From Escherichia coli (GTDB lineage Bacteria; Pseudomonadota; Gammaproteobacteria; Enterobacterales; Enterobacteriaceae), in NCBI RefSeq assembly GCF_009931435.1, contig NZ_CP043414.1: 64,000 nt of DNA. One strand, 5' to 3'. Position numbers and translations under genes: made by a program. This document shows positions 5,283 through 52,631 of this stretch, piece after piece; position 1 is the first letter of the stretch; each line of letters opens with the position of its first letter. The notes beneath the pieces are model-generated. The model made no database searches. It saw only the letters and a list, made by a program, of their open reading frames with translations, and was not told the DNA's origin.

Positions 5283-6295
5283 TTATTGAACGTTGTCGTG
5301 AACTGGCGTTGCGAGCGCCCGCCAGAGTAGTTTTTCCGGATGCGTTAGATCAACGTGTGCTGAAAGCTGCGCAATATTTACATCAACAAGGTCTGGCAAC
5401 GCCCATTCTGGTCGCCAATCCGTTTGAACTTCGTCAGTTTGCGCTCAGCCACGGCGTGGCGATGGACGGGCTACTGGTGATTGATCCTCATAGCAACCTC
5501 GCAATGCGGGAAGAATTTGCTCATCGCTGGCTGGCCCGCGCGGGCGAAAAAACGCCGCCGGATGCGCTGGAAAAACTTACCGATCCGCTGATGTTCGCCG
5601 CCGCAATGGTCAGCGCCGGTAAAGCGGATGTCTGTATCGCGGGCAACCTCTCTTCCACGGCGAATGTGCTGCGTGCCGGATTACGCATTATCGGCTTGCA
5701 GCAAGGCTGTAAAACGCTCTCCTCCATTTTCCTGATGCTGCCACAGTACAGCGGTCCAGCGTTGGGCTTTGCCGATTGCAGCGTAGTGCCACAGCCGACG
5801 GCGGCACAACTGGCGGATATCGCGCTTGCCAGCGCCGAAACCTGGCGAGCCATCACCGGAGAAGAGCCGCGGGTGGCGATGTTGTCGTTCTCCAGTAACG
5901 GCAGCGCCCGTCACCCCTGCGTTGCCAACGTCCAGCAAGCGACAGAAATCGTCCGTGAGCGCGCACCGCAGCTGGTCGTCGATGGCGAGTTGCAGTTTGA
6001 CGCCGCCTTTGTGCCAGAAGTGGCGGCGCAAAAAGCGCCAGCCAGCCCGCTACAGGGCAAAGCCAATGTGATGGTTTTTCCGTCGCTGGAGGCGGGAAAT
6101 ATTGGCTACAAAATCGCACAACGACTTGGCGGATATCGTGCCGTCGGGCCATTGATACAAGGACTTGCCGCGCCGATGCACGATCTTTCTCGTGGTTGTA
6201 GCGTGCAGGAAATTATCGAGCTGGCGCTGGTGGCAGCTGTGCCGCGTCAGACAAAAGTGAACCGCGAAAGCAGTTTACAAACACTGGTTGAATGA
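5279..6295 (+). CDS. eutD: phosphotransacetylase EutD
   Basis: 338 aa; PTA family sequence; operon position. Confidence 0.9.
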
Positions 6296-45746: not shown

Positions 45747-45984
45747 AAAGACTCCAGATGAACGATGCTTTCATTGTGCGTTCTTCTGATTGATAAATAA
45801 AACTGAATTGCTTAACAATTTGTGCGCGATAATGGAGAGTGAGTGGGGGCTCGCTTCGACTGGCGGGCTGAGTTGGGCAAGCAAATCCGAACGAATCAAA
45901 TAAGGGCGGTCAATGAGTGCGCTTGATGACCGCTGTAATATTATTGCTGACGACCGTAGCCGTTTTAGTGTTATCAACGCAGGC

Positions 45985-46752
45985 TTAGAACTGATATTTT
46001 ATTGAATAAATAATGCCATCCTGGAGGAAGGCTTCACCCAGTTTATTATCTGCGTAGCGATATTGAATCCCTGCCGTAAAATGCGGTGTCGCATTCCACC
46101 AAAACGCTACTGCTCCGTTTATACCTTCTTTTCCGCCATTACCTGCTGCATATGTAGCGTCGCGGTCAAATTCGTATTCATTCCAGTTAGTCAGGCTGAA
46201 TTTTTCGCTACCAAGCGTGAAACTGTATCCGGCAACCCAGCCCAAAACATAGCCATTGTCACCGGTATAATAGGTTTGATCGGTGTAACGTTTCGCGAAG
46301 AATGGCTTAAACCAGTAACCATTTCCCGTAAAATTGTATCCAAGCCCGTAAAGGAATGTATCATCATAGAAGTTAACACGTTCAGGTGAACCGTAAGTCC
46401 CGTAAGCGTGAAGATAAAGATTCAGTCCTGTATCACCAAGATAAATGCGGTTGGTACTTTTAAAAGTATAACGTTGTTCACTGCCAGATTTTGAATGTCG
46501 GCCATTATAGAAGTTCTCCCAATCGAAGAACCCGTACATTTCTCCCCAACTAAAGTTAGCACCACCTTCTAATTCCAGATAGCCAAAATCATCTTTATGG
46601 GACTTATTACTGGTTTTCTCTGTCGTGCGGGATGTCCAGTCAAGATAATGCAGACCAATGTCAGCAAAGCCCCCTTTAAACTCGGCATAAGACATTTGCG
46701 GAAAAGCCATGGGAACCAGACCAAGGCTTAATGCAAGAAGCTGTTTTTTCAT
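45985..46752 (-). CDS. yfeN: Tsx-family outer membrane nucleoside channel-like protein YfeN
   Basis: ATG at 46752 (MKKQLLALSLGLVPMAFPQMSYA signal peptide), Tyr/Gly-rich beta-barrel sequence ending ...YQF. Confidence 0.85.
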   Translation of the reverse strand: MKKQLLALSLGLVPMAFPQMSYAEFKGGFADIGLHYLDWTSRTTEKTSNKSHKDDFGYLELEGGANFSWGEMYGFFDWENFYNGRHSKSGSEQRYTFKSTNRIYLGDTGLNLYLHAYGTYGSPERVNFYDDTFLYGLGYNFTGNGYWFKPFFAKRYTDQTYYTGDNGYVLGWVAGYSFTLGSEKFSLTNWNEYEFDRDATYAAGNGGKEGINGAVAFWWNATPHFTAGIQYRYADNKLGEAFLQDGIIYSIKYQF

Positions 46753-47005
46753 AGTATGTTCCACTTAAGTAATAAATTTAATGAATGTGATATGCTTACA
46801 TATTTATGCTGTAATTATTTGGCATGTCTATTTTATTAGATTTATGACAGCTCTAACCAATACATAATTATCACGTAATGATAGGGTGTCGATCTGAATG
46901 TCTTCAGGATTGATATCAAATTGCAATTGATATCCGTGGTAAAAAGTATTGGTAAATGTGATGAATTTCCGGTTATTTAAAGGGGGCTCAAAGTCGAAGG
47001 AGAAG

Positions 47006-48262
47006 ATGGTGAATCTAAAACTACAATTAAAAGTACTTTCATTTCTGCAATTCTTTTTGTGGGGAAGTTGGCTCAATACATTCGGTTCCTATATGTTTAT
47101 CACGCTGCGTTTTAAAGGCGAGGATATTGGTGCAGTCTATAGTACCTTGGGTATTGCAGCATTAATAACATCAACGTTATTTGGTATCGTGGCCGATAAA
47201 TGGATTAGTGCTAAATGGATATATGCCGCTTGTCATTTATTTGGCGCGATAACATTATTTGTCGCTGCATCGGTTACCACGCCTTCGGCAATGTTCATTG
47301 TCATTTTACTTAACTCTCTCGTGTATATGCCAACGCTCGGTTTGAGTAATACAATTTCCTATTACCGCATACAAACTGCGGGGATGGATATTGTGACAGA
47401 ATTTCCACCAATCCGTATTTGGGGCACGATTGGATTTATTGTCGCGATGTGGGCGGTGAGTTTGGCAGGTTTTGAATTAAGTCATATGCAATTGTATATC
47501 GGCGCGGCAGCTTCGTTAGGCTTGAGCCTGTTCACGTTGACATTACCGACTGTACCAGTGGCGAAATCTAACCAGGCGCAAGGAATGATAGACGTGCTCG
47601 GACTGCGTGCATTTGCACTGTTTAAGAACAGCAAAATGGCGATTTTCTTTATCTTTGCCATGCTGCTCGGGGCAGAACTACAAATTACCGGGATGTTTGG
47701 TAATACATTTCTCCACAGTTTTGAGAGTGTTCCAGAGTTTGCCAATAGCGTTGTTGTAACTCATGCTTCTATTTTGTTATCAATTTCTCAGATATCCGAA
47801 GTCTGCTTCATTCTTGCCATTCCCTTTTTCCTGAAAAAATACGGTATCAAAAATGTCATGCTGATGAGCATGGTGGCCTGGACGCTGCGTTTTGGTTTAT
47901 TCGCTTATGGCGATCCTTCATTCGGCGGTACCATTCTGTTAATTCTTTCGATGATTGTTTATGGCTGTGCTTTTGACTTCTTCAATATATCTGGCTCGGT
48001 ATTTGTTGAACAAGAAGTTGATCCATCGATTCGTAACAGCGCTCAGGGCGTTTTCCTGATGATGGCCAATGGTTTTGGTTGTATTCTGGGCGGTTTTATC
48101 AGTGGTAAAGTCGTCGATTATTTAACAACGGATGGCAATCCACAGTGGTCAACCATTTGGCTGGTATTTGCCGGATATTCACTGGTTCTGGCTCTCGCAT
48201 TTATGGTGTTGTTTAAATATAAACACAACAGTAACCCGACAACATCCGGTCATTTCGCCTGA
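47006..48262 (+). CDS. nucleoside:H+ symporter (NHS) family MFS transporter, NupG-like paralog additional to xapB
   Basis: 418 aa from ATG at 47006 with RBS aaggag at 46997-47002; MVNLKLQLKVLSFLQFFLWGSW... and conserved MIVYGCAFDFFNISGSVFVEQEV block shared with NupG/XapB; AT-rich by eye. Confidence 0.8.
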   Translation: MVNLKLQLKVLSFLQFFLWGSWLNTFGSYMFITLRFKGEDIGAVYSTLGIAALITSTLFGIVADKWISAKWIYAACHLFGAITLFVAASVTTPSAMFIVILLNSLVYMPTLGLSNTISYYRIQTAGMDIVTEFPPIRIWGTIGFIVAMWAVSLAGFELSHMQLYIGAAASLGLSLFTLTLPTVPVAKSNQAQGMIDVLGLRAFALFKNSKMAIFFIFAMLLGAELQITGMFGNTFLHSFESVPEFANSVVVTHASILLSISQISEVCFILAIPFFLKKYGIKNVMLMSMVAWTLRFGLFAYGDPSFGGTILLILSMIVYGCAFDFFNISGSVFVEQEVDPSIRNSAQGVFLMMANGFGCILGGFISGKVVDYLTTDGNPQWSTIWLVFAGYSLVLALAFMVLFKYKHNSNPTTSGHFA

Positions 48263-48316
48263 TACGGAATTTATCAAAATTAATAATGTTTTATAGGATT
48301 AGCAAAGGAGGATATT

Positions 48317-49246
48317 ATGGCAAATCAATTGTATAACCAGTGTCGGGTTTATTGTGCACCCTGGCGATTAGATGCTTTGAATTTAAATGATATCATTGAT
48401 CAATGGATTGACGAGGGGCTGTTGCCGCCCCTGATCCATACTTTTCTTCCATATCGTGATGATGCCGGTGCCTCCAGTGAAGAAGAGATTTTTGTTAATG
48501 ATGTCGCGAATATGGACAATAGTGTTGGGGTTATCGGTTATTTCGATGGTGGAACCTATGATTCCGGTTGTGCATGGGAAGTAGGCTATGCATGGGCTTT
48601 AGGGATGCCTGTTCACTTGGTAACGACAGACTTTCTTATATGGGCAGCGGGGAATTCTTCAGAGTTTTACCCTATAAGTAAGCTGATGAATTATGTGGCA
48701 AAAGTGGTTTCGGTGTCAGATTCCGATGCTAGCATCAGCAACTATCGTGAACAAACCAACGATATCATCAAGCGTGCGTTGCAAATTCTTCAACAAAATT
48801 TAATCGCCGACTTCGGCACGACGATTACTCCCGCTGTACCGATTACGCCATTTCCGATTGAGTATGACTATTATCTTGATCCTAACTTTATGTATACCGA
48901 ACCCTCTCGGGGCTTACTGGAGAAAATCAAAGATGCGATCATTAGTGCAGGTAAGACTTTCATCGTTGGCGACAATATGAATGATATTGCGACTGATATT
49001 GATAACTTAAGAAAATCCAGACAGGCCATCTTTTATTCCGATACCTTTGAGCCGAATGTCGACACCGGTATTATGAATGGTATTGCCTATGCATTAGGAC
49101 AGCAATCGATAGTTTATTGTAGCAAGCAACAAAAGTATCAATCTGCGCTCGCGACAGATTATTTGAATTTAATGATTACCTGGTCGTCAACGGTGGCGCA
49201 TTCATTTGCGGAGCTTGAAACATTGATTGGTAACACAGAAAAATAA
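48317..49246 (+). CDS. hypothetical protein with two tandem nucleoside 2-deoxyribosyltransferase (NDT/Rcl)-like domains
   Basis: 309 aa; domain 1 has GYFDGGTYDSGCAWEVGYAWALGMPV (NDT/Rcl-like ExGYAxALGxP core with the Glu), domain 2 has DTGIMNGIAYALGQQ (same core, Asn in place of Glu); RBS aaggagg upstream; AT-rich by eye. Confidence 0.6.
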   Translation: MANQLYNQCRVYCAPWRLDALNLNDIIDQWIDEGLLPPLIHTFLPYRDDAGASSEEEIFVNDVANMDNSVGVIGYFDGGTYDSGCAWEVGYAWALGMPVHLVTTDFLIWAAGNSSEFYPISKLMNYVAKVVSVSDSDASISNYREQTNDIIKRALQILQQNLIADFGTTITPAVPITPFPIEYDYYLDPNFMYTEPSRGLLEKIKDAIISAGKTFIVGDNMNDIATDIDNLRKSRQAIFYSDTFEPNVDTGIMNGIAYALGQQSIVYCSKQQKYQSALATDYLNLMITWSSTVAHSFAELETLIGNTEK

Positions 49247-49258
49247 TAGTTAATTTTA

Positions 49259-49298
49259 CTGATTATCAGGTGAGTGATTGCCTGATAATCAGCTTTTG
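49259..49298 (+). terminator. intrinsic terminator closing the permease/NDT-like gene pair, upstream of xapA
   Basis: ctgattatcagg / 10-nt loop / cctgataatcag perfect 12-bp stem followed by cttttgg. Confidence 0.65.
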
Positions 49299-49474
49299 GT
49301 TAACCTCCAAAGATAATTATACGGCCGTTATATTTCTCTGCTGGGGAACGATATGATCGATTTCATAATCATATTGAATATCACAGAAAAATGTATTGGT
49401 CACTCGCGACTTTTTCTAGTTATAAAAAGATGCGACTCATATCTTACGAATAATGCATATTATAAGGACTTTCC

Positions 49475-50308
49475 ATGACCCAACCTCATTTTTCACAAAA
49501 CCCGTGGTATTGCGCAGATATCATTCGTCGACATAAACCAGATTTTACCCCACGCGTGGTGTTTATTTTGGGATCGGGGCTGGGAGCGTTAGCTGAACAA
49601 ATAGAAGATGCTGTTGCCATTTCTTATAGCGATTTGCCGGGGTTTCCGGTGAGCACCGTACATGGCCATGCAGGAGAGTTGGTCCTCGGAGTGCTCTCTG
49701 GTGTGCCTGTAGCCTGCATGAAAGGTCGCGGTCATTTTTATGAGGGCCGGGGAATGACAGTCATGACTGATGCTATTCGCACGTTCAAGTTGTTGGGCTG
49801 TGAATTGTTGTTCTGCACCAACGCTGCAGGTTCGCTTCGTCCAGAAGTCGGTGCGGGTAGTCTGGTTGCGCTGAAAGATCACATTAATACGATGCCAGGC
49901 ACACCGATGACAGGCCTTAATGATGAGCGTTTTGGCGAACGCTTTTTTTCATTAGCGAATGCTTACGATGCTGATTACCGCGCCGTTTTACAAACCGTCG
50001 CGCAGGAAGAAGGTTTTCCGCTGACAGAAGGGGTTTTTGTTTCTTATCCGGGCCCGAACTTCGAAACGGCGGCAGAAATTCGCATGATGCAGCTGATTGG
50101 TGGCGATGTTGTGGGTATGTCTGTAGTGCCTGAAGTGATTAGCGCACGTCATTGCGAAATGAAAGTCGTTGCCGTGTCCGCAATAACCAATATGGCAGAA
50201 GGCTTAAGTGATGTGAAATTGTCGCATGCCCAAACCCTGGCTGCAGCAGAGTTATCACGGCAAAACTTTATTAATCTGATTTGCGGATTCTTACGCAAAA
50301 TCGCCTGA
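49475..50308 (+). CDS. xapA: purine nucleoside phosphorylase II (xanthosine phosphorylase)
   Basis: 277 aa PNP family sequence (GSGLGALAEQIE..., GHAGELVLG...). Confidence 0.9.
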   Translation: MTQPHFSQNPWYCADIIRRHKPDFTPRVVFILGSGLGALAEQIEDAVAISYSDLPGFPVSTVHGHAGELVLGVLSGVPVACMKGRGHFYEGRGMTVMTDAIRTFKLLGCELLFCTNAAGSLRPEVGAGSLVALKDHINTMPGTPMTGLNDERFGERFFSLANAYDADYRAVLQTVAQEEGFPLTEGVFVSYPGPNFETAAEIRMMQLIGGDVVGMSVVPEVISARHCEMKVVAVSAITNMAEGLSDVKLSHAQTLAAAELSRQNFINLICGFLRKIA

Positions 50309-50365
50309 AAACAATAAAAATGGCCTCGCGGATGGGGCCATCTCACTGCGATAAGGAAATAAAAC

Positions 50366-51622
50366 ATGAATATCGCAACGCGTTTAAAGGTAATGTCTTT
50401 CTTACAATACTTTATCTGGGGGAGTTGGTTAGTTACCCTCGGCTCTTACATGATTAACACCTTACATTTTACCGGGGCTGATGTCGGTATGGCATACAGT
50501 TCTAAAGGTATTGCGGCCATTATTATGCCAGCCGTTATGGGCATTATTGCCGATAAATGGTTACGGGCTGAACGTACCTATATGCTGTGTCACTTAATTT
50601 GTGCCGGGGTGCTTTTTTATGCCGCCTCTGTAACTGAACCGAATATGATGTTCTGGGTGATGTTGCTTAACGCGATGGCTTTCATGCCCACGATTGCGTT
50701 ATCCAACAGTGTTTCCTATTCGTGTTTGGCGCAGGCCGGATTAGATCCGGTCACCAGTTTTCCGCCAATCCGTGTTTATGGTACCGTGGGATTTATTGTC
50801 GCAATGTGGCTGGTGAGTTTATTGCATCTGGAGTTAAGCAGTGTGCAATTGTATATCGCCTCCGGAGCATCTCTAGTGCTAGCGGTCTATGCGTTAACGT
50901 TACCGAAAATTCCAGTGGCGGAACATAAGGCCAGTACGACGCTTTCCAGTAAATTAGGTCTGGATGCGTTTGTGTTATTTAAAAATCCACGTATGGCGAT
51001 TTTCTTTTTATTTGCCATGTTATTAGGGGCGGTCCTGCAAATTACTAACGTTTTTGGTAATCCTTTTCTGCATGATTTTGCCCGCAACCCTGAGTTTGCT
51101 GATAGCTTCGTGGTGAAATATCCTTCCATTCTGCTCTCGGTATCACAAATGGCGGAAGTCGGCTTCATTCTGACTATTCCTTTCTTTCTGAAGCGTTTTG
51201 GCATCAAAACCGTCATGTTGATGAGTATGGTAGCGTGGACATTACGTTTTGGATTCTTTGCTTTTGGAGATCCGTCACCAGGTGGCTTTGTATTATTGCT
51301 GCTGTCGATGATTGTGTATGGCTGCGCGTTCGACTTTTTCAATATTTCCGGTTCAGTGTTTGTCGAGCAAGAAGTGGACTCCAGGATTCGCGCCAGCGCC
51401 CAGGGATTATTTATGACCATGGTCAATGGCGTTGGGGCGTGGGTTGGTTCTCTTCTGAGTGGCATGGCGGTTGACTATTTCACGGTTGATGGTGTTAAAG
51501 ACTGGCAAACCATCTGGCTGGTATTTGCTGCGTATGCACTGGCCTTGGCGGTGATTTTTGCCCTGTTCTTCCGTTATAAACATGAACCTGAAAAAATGGC
51601 ACAGAAATCATTGGCTCACTGA
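50366..51622 (+). CDS. xapB: xanthosine permease (NHS family MFS)
   Basis: 418 aa MNIATRLKVMSFLQYFIWGSWLVTLGSYMINTLHFTGA...; follows xapA. Confidence 0.9.
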   Translation: MNIATRLKVMSFLQYFIWGSWLVTLGSYMINTLHFTGADVGMAYSSKGIAAIIMPAVMGIIADKWLRAERTYMLCHLICAGVLFYAASVTEPNMMFWVMLLNAMAFMPTIALSNSVSYSCLAQAGLDPVTSFPPIRVYGTVGFIVAMWLVSLLHLELSSVQLYIASGASLVLAVYALTLPKIPVAEHKASTTLSSKLGLDAFVLFKNPRMAIFFLFAMLLGAVLQITNVFGNPFLHDFARNPEFADSFVVKYPSILLSVSQMAEVGFILTIPFFLKRFGIKTVMLMSMVAWTLRFGFFAFGDPSPGGFVLLLLSMIVYGCAFDFFNISGSVFVEQEVDSRIRASAQGLFMTMVNGVGAWVGSLLSGMAVDYFTVDGVKDWQTIWLVFAAYALALAVIFALFFRYKHEPEKMAQKSLAH

Positions 51623-51696
51623 TGTAAACAGGGTTTTCCTTGATTGCAATGTGCTAAGTTTGCAGCCTTACCCATACCGTATGGAGCGCAATAATT

Positions 51697-52581
51697 ATGG
51701 AAAGTACACATCGTATTGATCTCAAGTTATTGCGCTATTTTCTTGCGGTCGCAGAAGAACTTCACTTTGGGCGGGCCGCTGCGCGGCTGAATATGTCGCA
51801 ACCGCCATTAAGTATTCATATCAAAGATCTGGAACAACAGTTGGGCACTTTGCTGTTCGTTCGGCATTCGCGCAGTGTGGCGCTCACTCATGCAGGAAAA
51901 ATTTTATTGGAAGAGTCACGTCGATTGCTGGCTAACGCCAGCCAGGCGCTGGCTCGAGTAGAACAGATTGGTCGTGGTGAAGCAGGGCGTATTGAGCTGG
52001 GCGTGGTGGGAACCGCGATGTGGGGGCGAATGCGTCCGGCAATGCGGCGGTTTTTGAAAGAGTGCCCTAATGTTCATGTCTCATTTCGTGAAAAATCCCC
52101 AGGGATGCAAATGGCGTTGCTTGAGCGGCGGGAACTGGACGCTGGTATCTGGCGGATGGCGATTGAACCAACAGTAGGATTTACCAGCCTGCGATTACAC
52201 GAATCATCGTTTCTGGTAGCAATACCGGAAGATCATTATCTGGCTTGCGAAAACGCTATCCCGTTAATGGCATTACGCAATGAATACTTTGTGACGCTGC
52301 CATCGGTCCATTCCGACTGGGCGTTTTTACAGCGTGTCTGTCAGCAGGCGGGGTTTTCACCGATGATCGTCCGCGAGGCCGTAGAGCCGCAAACCGTACT
52401 GGCGATGATCAGTATGGGGCTGGGTGTAACATTAATGGCAGATAGCTATGCCCAAATGAGCTGGCCGGGGGTGGTATTTCGTCCACTCGAGGAACGTATT
52501 CCAGCAGACTTGTATATTGTTTATGAACAGCAACAGGCAACACCAGCGCTGGAGAGATTAGTTAATGCTTTGATAGCATGA
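51697..52581 (+). CDS. xapR: LysR-family transcriptional activator of xapAB
   Basis: 294 aa; LysR HTH LKLLRYFLAVAEELHFGRAAARLNMSQPPLS. Confidence 0.88.
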   Translation: MESTHRIDLKLLRYFLAVAEELHFGRAAARLNMSQPPLSIHIKDLEQQLGTLLFVRHSRSVALTHAGKILLEESRRLLANASQALARVEQIGRGEAGRIELGVVGTAMWGRMRPAMRRFLKECPNVHVSFREKSPGMQMALLERRELDAGIWRMAIEPTVGFTSLRLHESSFLVAIPEDHYLACENAIPLMALRNEYFVTLPSVHSDWAFLQRVCQQAGFSPMIVREAVEPQTVLAMISMGLGVTLMADSYAQMSWPGVVFRPLEERIPADLYIVYEQQQATPALERLVNALIA

Positions 52582-52601
52582 AAGAAAATATCGCAGATAG
52601 C

Positions 52602-52628
52602 AAAAAAGCGCCTTTAGGGCGCTTTTTT
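52602..52628. terminator. bidirectional intrinsic terminator between xapR (+) and lysV (-)
   Basis: aaaaaagcgcc-ttta-gggcgctttttt hairpin with A- and T-tracts. Confidence 0.65.
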
Positions 52629-52631
52629 ACA

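Follow-up and report, generated by a model that had tools for sequence, protein, structure and literature searches.

A NupG paralog and a tandem nucleoside 2-deoxyribosyltransferase-like protein encoded in a divergent xap locus of Escherichia coli

Two annotated yet uncharacterized genes that lie between yfeN and xapA in a divergent xap locus of Escherichia coli appear, on balance, to belong to an XapR-controlled route in which deoxynucleosides would be imported and then subjected to a base-exchange or hydrolysis step that feeds XapA, an arrangement that would be native to Escherichia. The first gene encodes a paralog of NupG and the second a 309-aa protein with two fused nucleoside 2-deoxyribosyltransferase (NDT)-like domains. 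The DNA analyzed (the window) is a 64,000-nt stretch of E. coli sequence (assembly GCF_009931435.1, contig NZ_CP043414.1). The features of the locus are listed in Table 1.

Table 1. Features of the divergent xap locus, in positions of the window
Feature	Position	Strand	Model match or remark
Divergent haplotype block, yfeN to xapR-like gene	45810-52588		Flanks: yfeH and tRNA-Lys
yfeN, Tsx/OmpK-family outer-membrane nucleoside channel, divergent allele	45985-46752	-	NCBIfam NF008574, 435 bits
45-bp xapA-promoter-type element, copy 1	46909-46953	+	Putative XapR operator
NupG-paralog nucleoside:H+ symporter, 417 aa	47009-48262	+	N228G in base-contacting pocket
Tandem NDT-like protein, domain 1 (residues 1-168)	48317-48820	+	Predicted catalytic
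Tandem NDT-like protein, domain 2 (residues 169-309 plus stop)	48821-49246	+	
Intrinsic-terminator-like hairpin closing the permease-NDT unit	49259-49298	+	
45-bp promoter element, copy 2	49356-49400	+	Upstream of xapA
xapA (xanthosine/purine nucleoside phosphorylase II), divergent allele	49475-50308	+	TIGR01699 equivalog, 512 bits (cut-off 371)
xapB-like NHS permease	50366-51622	+	TIGR00889, 720 bits
xapR-like LysR regulator	51697-52581	+	NF007439, 514 bits

The presence of the 2.7-kb module across E. coli was checked as an earlier note on this DNA had proposed, and the module was found in 15 of 5,426 complete genomes. Both ORFs are annotated as CDS by RefSeq in the 15 carriers and are intact in all of them. 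The earlier note had placed a permease ORF and a 309-aa ORF (48317-49246 in the ORF list of the window) between yfeN and xapA, and both are present as described. The identities that it assigned, a NupG-like permease of the NHS family and a protein with tandem NDT-like domains, are right according to the Pfam and NCBIfam models and the predicted fold, and the adjacency of yfeN and xapA that it gave for K-12 is seen in the K-12 sequence. For the permease, which it had drawn from 47006 to 48262, the gene and its end stand and the start is moved. E. albertii lacks the ATG at 47006, whereas the GTG at 47009 is conserved and is also the RefSeq start.

The permease was identified using Pfam PF03825 (Nuc_H_symport, 4e-165) and NCBIfam TIGR00889, for which a full-length match of 634 bits is obtained against a cut-off of 446. 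The protein is 74% identical to NupG (PDB 7DL9) in a gap-free alignment. Nine of the 10 residues of the NupG uridine site are kept (R136, T140, F143, Q225, Q261, E264, Y318, F322, and D323), among them the ribose-binding residues R136, T140, and E264. The exception is N228, which is replaced by glycine. In NupG this asparagine touches the base in a docking model, and the N228A substitution abolishes uridine binding (PMC8042404). The residue G228 is conserved in both E. coli variants, in E. albertii, in Citrobacter, and in all of the NDT-linked permeases. The dN/dS of the permease gene relative to E. albertii is 0.025. The paralog also differs from NupG in that its gene sits in the xap locus behind a xapA-type promoter element.

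The 309-aa protein is covered by no NCBIfam model. Pfam family PF05014 matches residues 41-106 at 6e-11 and residues 225-286 at just 0.03. The full-length structure model has a pLDDT of 90.8 and a pTM of 0.92; its top specific PDB matches are NDTs, and each half matches solved NDTs. The family and structure-prediction checks suggested earlier returned the NDT family for the protein and NDT folds in both halves. The profile of domain 1 matches solved NDTs at 3e-9 to 1e-3, and its hhalign comparison with L. leichmannii NDT (1F8X) gives an E of 3e-5. In the L. leichmannii enzyme, E98 is the nucleophile, D72 contacts the base, and Y7, at the end of strand 1, positions the nucleophile. The residues D72, D92, and E98 of 1F8X align with D62, D82, and E88 of domain 1 (codons 48500-48502, 48560-48562, and 48578-48580, respectively), which are invariant in 20 family members. 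D82 and E88 fit the glutamate-nucleophile motif D-x-G-x-x-x-E-x-G. Residue Y6 is at least 90% conserved and is located in a predicted strand (residues 5-7), in a region outside all of the profile alignments to solved NDTs. Domain 1 is the only domain that retains the NDT catalytic Asp/Asp/Glu set, and it is the predicted catalytic domain. Strong purifying selection acts on both domains (dN/dS of 0.03-0.05).

Domain 2 was folded alone using AF2, which provided a pLDDT of 84. The top 31 PDB matches of this model are all NDT-family chains, including one CMP N-glycosidase, with TM values of 0.56-0.68. The relationship was detected by fold comparison alone: the sequence of domain 2 gave nothing significant against solved structures or, by hhalign, against 1F8X. 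The hhalign match between domains 1 and 2 is weak (E = 0.0015, probability 16%). The position of domain 2 that corresponds to E88 is variable, with Met/Leu or Asn/Gln and no Glu nucleophile, and the counterpart of D62 is not conserved, being G, E, or T in some members. The dN/dS of 0.05 for domain 2 is that of a sequence under purifying selection. Known NDTs are chains of 140-170 aa that form homo-oligomers in which the neighboring subunit completes the active site (N123' and the C-terminal Y157' in L. leichmannii NDT). An L-N-x-M motif of domain 2 resembles N123-L-M125, and the order of the predicted secondary structure elements is alike, with an hhalign match to 1F8X that is nonsignificant. 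Since domain 2 has the NDT fold without the nucleophile, the modeled 309-aa protein has the appearance of a pseudo-dimer that is built from one chain and has a single active site. The literature search retrieved nothing relevant on a characterized tandem NDT or on an NDT in a xap or deo context, and no biochemical work on members of the tandem family. NDTs are widely used to make nucleoside analogs, and a form fused in nature, with a single active site and strongly selected, would be a new architecture to study and engineer.

The NDTs of PF05014 (1F8X, the L. helveticus PDT 1S2D, and the Chroococcidiopsis NDT 8PQT) share their fold with both halves of the protein and have the Asp/Asp/Glu set in register with domain 1. 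They differ in that the 309-aa protein consists of two fused domains with a nucleophile in just one, at a sequence identity of 12-22%, and in that its context is catabolic (phosphorylase, DeoC, transporter), whereas characterized NDTs are known from salvage. The enzymes DNPH1/Rcl, MilB, BlsM, and BcmB are single-domain dimers that hydrolyze the N-glycosidic bond of 5'-monophosphates. They also share the fold and the Glu nucleophile, and 8rps and 4jen are found among the structural matches. The tandem protein differs from DNPH1/Rcl and the CMP N-glycosidases in having no evident phosphate-binding loop, the Gly-rich loop of DNPH1 (GSIRGG) having no visible equivalent in the domain 1 sequence, and in having nucleoside transporters as partners.

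The 45-bp element occurs just twice in the window, before the permease gene and before xapA. Copy 1 precedes the permease start by about 100 nt and leads into TTGGTA (46949-46954), 19 nt, and TATTTA (46974-46979). The local alignment of copy 1 to the upstream element of K-12 xapA has a score of 42, compared with 18.9 ± 2.7 (maximum 32) for shuffled sequences, and the match of the 45-bp element to the K-12 region has a z of about 8. Copy 2 aligns with the same K-12 element (L002 4507-4551). The layout TTGGTA-19 nt-TAT(A/T)(A/T)A is common to the permease promoter and the K-12 xapA promoter region. In the second E. coli carrier copy 1 is conserved, and in E. albertii it is largely so. Two XapR sites, one of which overlaps the -35 region, were reported upstream of K-12 xapA (PMC7205307). 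Because that report gives no XapR site sequences, the 45-bp element is linked to these sites by position, and it is designated here as a putative XapR operator. The search of the region upstream of the permease using Rfam returned tRNAs alone, even at E ≤ 0.1, with no riboswitch or other known RNA, and inspection by eye gave no convincing match to CRP, CytR, or DeoR sites.

The strong terminator that the earlier note had assigned to the two-gene unit is supported by a hairpin at 49259-49292 with a folding energy of -21.4 kcal/mol (z = -6.2 relative to shuffled sequences) and perfect 12-bp arms, followed by CUUUUGG. Both E. albertii and the second E. coli carrier have kept the hairpin. With this terminator between them, the enzyme gene and xapA are assigned to separate transcription units; the permease and enzyme genes would be cotranscribed.

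The genomes that carry the module and those that carry the divergent xapA are the same 15 (complete linkage). The nucleotide identity to K-12 is 96.6% in the flank up to 45809, 68-77% within the block, and back at 99% from 52589 on. A low G+C content spans the entire block, of which the two extra genes are just part. The block shares with K-12 its flanks, the order xapA-xapB-xapR, and the 45-bp promoter element. It differs in protein identity (78-90% for XapABR), in the two extra genes and the second copy of the element, and in that yfeR and the DUF1427 ORF of K-12 are missing. The identities to the K-12 and E. albertii proteins are 89.5% and 96% for XapA, 89% and 97.6% for the XapB-like permease, and 77.9% and 95.6% for the XapR-like regulator, respectively. 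YfeN is 83.5% identical to K-12 YfeN; its gene has an internal deletion in the 94% E. coli variant and is missing in E. albertii. The XapR of K-12 is 89% identical to that of Salmonella, 85% to Klebsiella, 78% to E. albertii, and 76% to E. fergusonii.

The dS values relative to E. albertii are 0.71-0.78 for the block and 0.50-0.68 for the flanking core genes, and the dS of the block also tracks that of the flanks in the comparison with the second E. coli carrier. The dS relative to the K-12-type xapABR is saturated. From these two observations, the window-type haplotype is probably ancestral in Escherichia and was lost or replaced in most E. coli, and the K-12-type xapABR probably came from a foreign source and took the place of the native Escherichia locus. 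The earlier view of a two-gene insertion into a K-12-like backbone is not sustained, because the whole block from yfeN to xapR is a different haplotype. What survives of its accessory insertion is the rarity of the module in E. coli; the insertion itself is opposed by the dS of the block and by the absence of repeats and IS elements. No flanking repeats, IS elements, integrase, or other mobile genes were found around the module, no copies were found in phages, and plasmids gave just one distant relative, from Deinococcus. Mobile insertion was ruled out on these grounds, and a horizontally inserted islet was rejected from the lack of repeats and mobile genes together with a block dS like that of the flanks. 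The probably native form of xap persists in E. albertii and in ~0.3% of complete E. coli genomes, the ExPEC strains IAI39 and CE10 among them. These observations bear on the choice of K-12 as a reference in work on nucleoside metabolism and on nucleoside-drug metabolism by gut bacteria.

Close relatives of the tandem enzyme are rare and occur in Escherichia, Citrobacter, and gut Clostridia. Their genes always adjoin a nucleoside or nucleobase transporter and usually a purine nucleoside phosphorylase, DeoC, or DeoB as well. The order in E. coli and E. albertii is NHS permease, enzyme, xapA, xapB, and xapR, and in Citrobacter the same permease-enzyme pair adjoins an adenine deaminase. The loci of Lachnospiraceae contain DeoR beside a series of enzyme, DeoD, DeoC, DeoB (in one of the two loci), and a Bmp-type ABC transporter. 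Another lineage of Clostridia has DeoR beside enzyme, DeoC, PunA, and an ABC transporter, and Enterocloster has PunA, an ABC transporter, and the enzyme. The neighbors of other relatives are a ribokinase-like PfkB, an IU nucleoside hydrolase, or an NCS1 transporter with a cytidine-type deaminase. Most of the Clostridia operons contain no pyrimidine-type phosphorylase; one Udp-like gene falls below the cut-off. The Clostridia operons resemble the deo operon (deoCABD) in their DeoC, DeoB, DeoD- or PunA-type phosphorylases, and DeoR-family regulator, whereas none of the deoCABD genes corresponds to the tandem enzyme. The recurrence of this enzyme in gut Clostridia and Enterobacteriaceae next to transporters, purine nucleoside phosphorylase, DeoC, and DeoB points to a possible missing step, one for which the textbook deo pathway makes no provision. 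The contexts of the relatives and the shared xapA promoter element agree with the proposal made earlier of a nucleoside or deoxynucleoside utilization unit that includes XapA, XapB, and YfeN. The riboswitch scan of the related loci gave one cobalamin riboswitch, in one Clostridia locus.

In the favored pathway, the two genes would constitute a small operon of a XapR-type nucleoside-utilization locus. The Tsx-like channel YfeN and the NupG paralog would import a (deoxy)nucleoside. Domain 1 would cleave the N-glycosidic bond via a covalent deoxyribosyl-Glu88 intermediate and transfer the sugar either to a different base (base exchange) or to water, with domain 2, its nucleophile lost, acting in place of the partner subunit found in conventional NDT dimers. 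By base exchange, deoxynucleosides that XapA cannot use would be converted to 6-oxopurine deoxynucleosides and phosphorolyzed by XapA; the purine base would be recycled, and deoxyribose-1-phosphate would pass to DeoB and DeoC. The base-exchange idea comes from the lack of a pyrimidine-type phosphorylase in most of the deo-like operons of the relatives. E. coli degrades all canonical deoxynucleosides using DeoA, DeoD, and Cdd, so such a step may not be needed. The PfkB kinase and IU hydrolase neighbors are no less compatible with hydrolysis to the free sugar than with transfer.

The enzyme may instead be a hydrolase proper, which we regard as possible but rather unlikely. It would act as a deoxynucleoside N-hydrolase that releases free deoxyribose, or as a 5'-monophosphate N-glycosidase like DNPH1/Rcl or MilB/BcmB that releases (deoxy)ribose-5-phosphate directly for DeoC. 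The fold and Glu chemistry are those of DNPH1 and BcmB, both of which are among the structural matches; ribokinase-like PfkB genes flank relatives, several operons have DeoC without DeoB, and one lineage has the IU nucleoside hydrolase neighbor. The lack of a visible Gly-rich loop in domain 1 argues against a monophosphate substrate of the DNPH1 type, and a nucleoside product is favored over free sugar because the partner transporters are of the nucleoside/nucleobase type and the enzyme partner seen most often is a purine nucleoside phosphorylase. It is doubtful, in turn, that the pair is specialized for a noncanonical or modified (deoxy)nucleoside, such as a 5-substituted pyrimidine from phage, host, or dietary DNA, whose sugar would pass to XapA and the Deo enzymes. 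Such a specialization would explain why E. coli keeps the pair beside the canonical deo enzymes. It agrees with the loss of uridine binding in N228A NupG and the glycine in every NDT-linked permease, and with the restriction of the close family to gut bacteria. The relatives DNPH1 and MilB, represented by the match to PDB 8rps, act on 5-hydroxymethyl pyrimidine nucleotides. One relative's operon ends in a GH116 glycosidase, and a distant relative adjoins UDG, thymidylate kinase, Nmad3, and a radical-SAM gene. All of this support is circumstantial; the E. coli locus has no modified-base enzyme, and its regulator, phosphorylase, and promoter element are all of the xanthosine type. We are equally hesitant about the bolder proposition that the tandem protein is the first natural single-chain pseudo-dimeric NDT and, with a NupG paralog whose pocket is enlarged by N228G, defines a new gut-bacterial route for the salvage or catabolism of noncanonical deoxynucleosides, for example those with modified bases that come from phage, host, or dietary DNA. 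On this route a 6-oxopurine would take the place of the original base, making the sugar accessible to XapA or PNP together with DeoB and DeoC.

A nucleotide-depleting stress or antiphage defense module, the alternative offered in the earlier note, is highly improbable. A distant relationship links the NDT fold to TIR-type domains, and TIR-domain proteins appear among the weak structural matches. Against this, PADLOC matched neither protein, phage copies are absent and plasmid copies limited to the Deinococcus relative, the chromosomal position is fixed with vertical descent, and the neighbors are catabolic in all close relatives. There is similarly very little to recommend a decaying relic without present function in E. 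coli. The rarity of the module, the deletion of yfeN in one variant and its absence from E. albertii, and shorter, possibly truncated forms in databases would suit decay; the intact ORFs in every carrier, the dN/dS of 0.025-0.05 for both genes and both domains, and the conserved promoter element and terminator oppose it.

Recombination between the two copies of the 45-bp element would delete exactly both genes and yield the K-12 layout, and a lenient global alignment was uninformative on this point. Apart from the 45-bp element itself, no significant similarity links the intergenic region of K-12 to the left flank. A weak similarity to the right flank is detected, with a z of 2.8 (10 of 500 shuffles).

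The gene order at this locus was obtained from an ORF listing together with the RefSeq annotation of IAI39. The window is E. coli; over this region identity is 100% with strain R32_14_1F and 99.7% with IAI39 and CE10. The earlier note had described, between yfeN and xapA, an NHS permease gene, an ORF for a 309-residue protein with tandem nucleoside 2-deoxyribosyltransferase (NDT)-like domains (tNDT) and a strong terminator, and all three are confirmed by the ORFs, the Pfam/TIGR matches and folding of the hairpin. The start of the permease ORF, previously placed at 47006, is revised; GTG at 47009 is the conserved start, whereas E. albertii has not kept the ATG at 47006. The two genes are 54 nt apart, no terminator-like site was found in this spacer, and co-transcription is therefore plausible. 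Rfam gave a weak sraL-like match on the plus strand (52517-52631; E = 0.016, 26 bits where the gathering score is 39) that spans the end of the xapR-like gene and part of the interval up to tRNA-Lys; it is probably due to chance.

Features of the permease-tNDT locus (window positions)
Feature	Position	Strand	Evidence or remark
ligA, ypeB, yfeH			upstream flank, in that order; yfeH on minus strand
yfeN	45985-46752	-	ORF listing, IAI39 RefSeq annotation
45-bp element, copy 1	46909-46953		about 100 nt upstream of permease start
NHS permease	47009-48262	+	full-length PF03825/TIGR00889
tNDT, 309 aa	48317-49246	+	PF05014 twice, 6e-11 and 0.03
Hairpin	49259-49292		-21.4 kcal/mol, z = -6.2, then CUUUUGG
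45-bp element, copy 2	49356-49400		about 119 nt upstream of xapA
xapA	49475-50308		ORF listing, IAI39 RefSeq annotation
xapB	50366-51622		ORF listing, IAI39 RefSeq annotation
LysR regulator (xapR-like)	51697-52581		ORF listing, IAI39 RefSeq annotation
tRNA-Lys, tRNA-Val, then gltX			downstream flank

The structure of tNDT was predicted using AlphaFold2 with a 20-sequence alignment. The model (pLDDT 90.8, pTM 0.92) contains two alpha/beta domains linked by a long helix (residues 143-166), and its top PDB matches are NDTs, each spanning one domain. When domain 2 (residues 169-309) was modeled alone (pLDDT 84), the best 31 matches were all NDT-family chains; the proposal of two NDT-like domains therefore holds despite the weak Pfam score of domain 2 (0.03). 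The profile of domain 1 (residues 1-168) matches solved NDTs at 3e-9 to 1e-3. Alignment of domain 1 with the L. leichmannii NDT using hhalign (E = 3e-5; reference sequence checked against PDB 1F8X) places D62, D82, and E88 on D72, D92, and E98, respectively, the last being the covalent nucleophile of that enzyme. These three residues are invariant in 20 of 20 family members (41-94% identity). The position of the glutamate in domain 2 is occupied by Met/Leu or Asn/Gln, according to a one-residue gap, and the counterpart of D62 is likewise variable. Domain 2 is strongly constrained though it lacks the glutamate (dN/dS of 0.05, and 0.03 for domain 1), and it carries an invariant motif of its own, Y-D-Y-Y-L-D-P-N-F-x-Y-T-E; a pseudogene is unlikely. 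Because the active sites of ordinary NDTs are completed by the neighboring subunit, we infer that tNDT would be a pseudo-dimer formed by a single chain, with only one active site.

The permease is 74% identical to NupG, without gaps, and about 61% identical to XapB. Ten residues form or affect the uridine site of NupG (PMC8042404), and nine of these are kept, including the ribose-binding R136, T140, and E264. The exception is N228, a base contact in the docking model of NupG that is required for uridine binding (PMC8042404), which is replaced by glycine (codon 228, 47690-47692). G228 is present in every NDT-linked permease examined (both E. coli variants, E. albertii, and Citrobacter). The substitution suggests an altered base preference and does not indicate which base is preferred.

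The close tNDT family is small. It comprises 35 clusters among 5.8 billion proteins, and an exhaustive profile search returned 19 representatives below 1e-30. Approximately 80 of the 150 representatives listed are more distant proteins of tandem length (290-400 aa), whose sources include Thermus-group bacteria, Streptomyces, and CPR. Of 100,044 species genomes, 6 encode a close full-length relative (E. coli, E. albertii, two Enterocloster-type, one Lachnospiraceae, and one Clostridiales MAG); those of Citrobacter were found by protein search. A transporter adjoins tNDT in every informative neighborhood, and the commonest enzyme partners are purine nucleoside phosphorylase (PNP) and DeoC. The DeoC and DeoB neighbors point to a 2'-deoxyribose substrate.

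Gene neighborhoods of tNDT relatives
Lineage	Neighborhood
Citrobacter	NHS permease, tNDT, adenine deaminase (different locus)
Lachnospiraceae	DeoR; tNDT, DeoD-type PNP, DeoC, (DeoB), Bmp ABC transporter
Another Clostridia lineage	DeoR; tNDT, DeoC, PunA-type PNP, ABC transporter, GH116
Enterocloster	PunA-type PNP, ABC transporter, tNDT
Clostridia with eut genes	Udp-like, GntR, tNDT, Bmp ABC transporter, ribokinase-like PfkB
Clostridiales MAG	tNDT, IU nucleoside hydrolase, LacI
Metagenomic lineage	PfkB, tNDT, NCS1 transporter, Fe-ADH, cytidine-type deaminase

In a Clostridia relative (locus L005), a cobalamin riboswitch (110 bits, 5863-6056) is located between the end of a eut operon and the operon with the Udp-like, GntR, tandem-NDT, Bmp-ABC, and PfkB genes; a search of seven further loci gave no riboswitch of any kind. 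One tandem NDT-like protein that is only distantly related (loci L101, 897-7223, and L102; E = 1e-34 against the family profile) is encoded together with radical-SAM/SPASM, Nmad3, thymidylate kinase, UDG, and NCS1 transporter genes. This context is of a nucleotide-modification type and differs from the catabolic operons in which the close relatives lie. On the Deinococcus aquaticus plasmid pDATS03 (L103, 6306-7903), the gene of a 355-aa tandem NDT-like protein (23% identity) and the end of a gene for a DMT-family transporter overlap. Even relatives this distant thus show a transporter paired with a tandem NDT.

RefSeq names both genes by family, and they are therefore not unknown; no curated NCBIfam model covering tNDT and no literature on a tandem NDT or a characterized family member were found. 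What would be new here is a pseudo-dimeric NDT built from fused domains and placed in a catabolic setting of XapR type. By a modest balance of probability, nucleosides would be imported via YfeN and the NupG paralogue, the N-glycosidic bond would be cleaved through Glu88 with the sugar passed to a purine base or to water, and phosphorolysis by XapA would follow, with DeoB and DeoC acting last. A serious competing reading, of distinctly lower probability, is that tNDT would only hydrolyze its nucleoside or nucleotide substrate; it is favored by the PfkB kinases beside relatives and by operons with DeoC but without DeoB. Specialization for a modified nucleoside is rather improbable, and it would explain why E. 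coli keeps the two genes in addition to DeoA, DeoD, and Cdd. The earlier alternative of a nucleotide-depleting stress or defense function gained no support and is unlikely; neither protein matches a defense model, no phage copies were found, and the sole plasmid relative is the distant Deinococcus gene beside a DMT transporter.

The 64-kb window contains exactly two copies of the 45-bp element (ATYGATWTC...ATTGA...GTATTGGT), and a single copy lies upstream of xapA in the K-12 xap locus (L002, 4507-4551). The copy upstream of the permease scores 42 against the K-12 element (18.9 +/- 2.7 for shuffles), and both of these run into TTGGTA, 19 nt, and TAT(A/T)(A/T)A, as read from the sequence. A published study (PMC7205307) reports a pair of XapR sites at the xapAB promoter, one over the -35 and the other upstream; judged by position, the element would cover both. 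The permease-tNDT operon would thus be a second XapR-type-activated unit. Since the regulator in the window is only 78% identical to K-12 XapR, its inducer may differ.

The order in K-12 is yfeH, yfeR, yfeN, xapA, xapB, a DUF1427 ORF, and xapR, so that yfeN directly adjoins xapA there, as the earlier note stated. The reading of the two genes as an insertion was not upheld; the whole yfeN-xapR block is a divergent haplotype. The window is 96.6% identical to K-12 up to 45809 and 99% from 52589 on, and the sequence between is 68-77% identical or unalignable. The haplotype lacks yfeR, which in K-12 encodes a LysR protein and is oriented divergently to yfeH (L002, 2637-3563), leaving only about 240 bp between yfeH and yfeN (45747-45984), and likewise lacks the small DUF1427 ORF between xapB and xapR.

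Among 5,426 complete E. coli genomes, the two-gene stretch is present in 15, and window-type xapA in the same 15. K-12-type xapA is present in 4,074, with one group of alleles at no less than 99% (2,416 genomes) and another at 90-95% (1,642), and about 1,340 matched neither type. In several genomes, O157:H7 and derivatives of strain B among them, yfeN and the xap genes were not seen at the locus and a FlxA-like gene occupies the yfeR/tRNA-Lys interval. The xap locus is a hotspot of variation in E. coli. The 15 carriers form two variants, seven at no less than 99% and eight at about 94%. An internal deletion in yfeN of the 94% variant removes window 46050-46696, and E. albertii, where the genes are arranged as in the window and at the corresponding position, has no yfeN (L004, 5613-6246, and L017, 6082-6705, for these two observations); the permease and tNDT can therefore do without the outer-membrane channel.

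Synonymous divergence was compared with that of three flanking core genes (ligA, yfeH, gltX). For the window versus E. albertii, dS is 0.71-0.78 in the block and 0.50-0.68 in the flanks; versus the second E. coli variant (LHM10-1), the values are 0.10-0.24 and 0.10-0.15, respectively. Versus the K-12 type, block dS is saturated (>3 or incalculable) and that of yfeH is 0.14. XapA, XapB, and XapR of the window are 96, 97.6, and 95.6% identical to those of E. albertii and 89.5, 89.2, and 77.9% identical to those of K-12. Outside E. coli, K-12 XapR is nearest to Salmonella (89%) and Klebsiella (85%); for E. albertii the identity is 78-79%, and for E. fergusonii 76%. Low G+C extends across the entire block, and no repeats, IS elements, or integrase genes were found flanking it. 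The simplest reading of these sequences is vertical descent of the permease-tNDT-xapA'B'R' order in Escherichia, with a xenologous replacement or a deletion in the majority of E. coli. The K-12 xap locus is thus probably the foreign one, a separate and solid evolutionary finding.

The K-12 element is nearer to the permease-upstream copy than to the window xapA copy (local score of 33 for the latter), and the -10 region downstream of it weakly resembles the window xapA copy (z = 2.8). This pattern would fit, though weakly, with an ancestor of the K-12-type cassette in which the two promoter copies recombined and both genes were lost.
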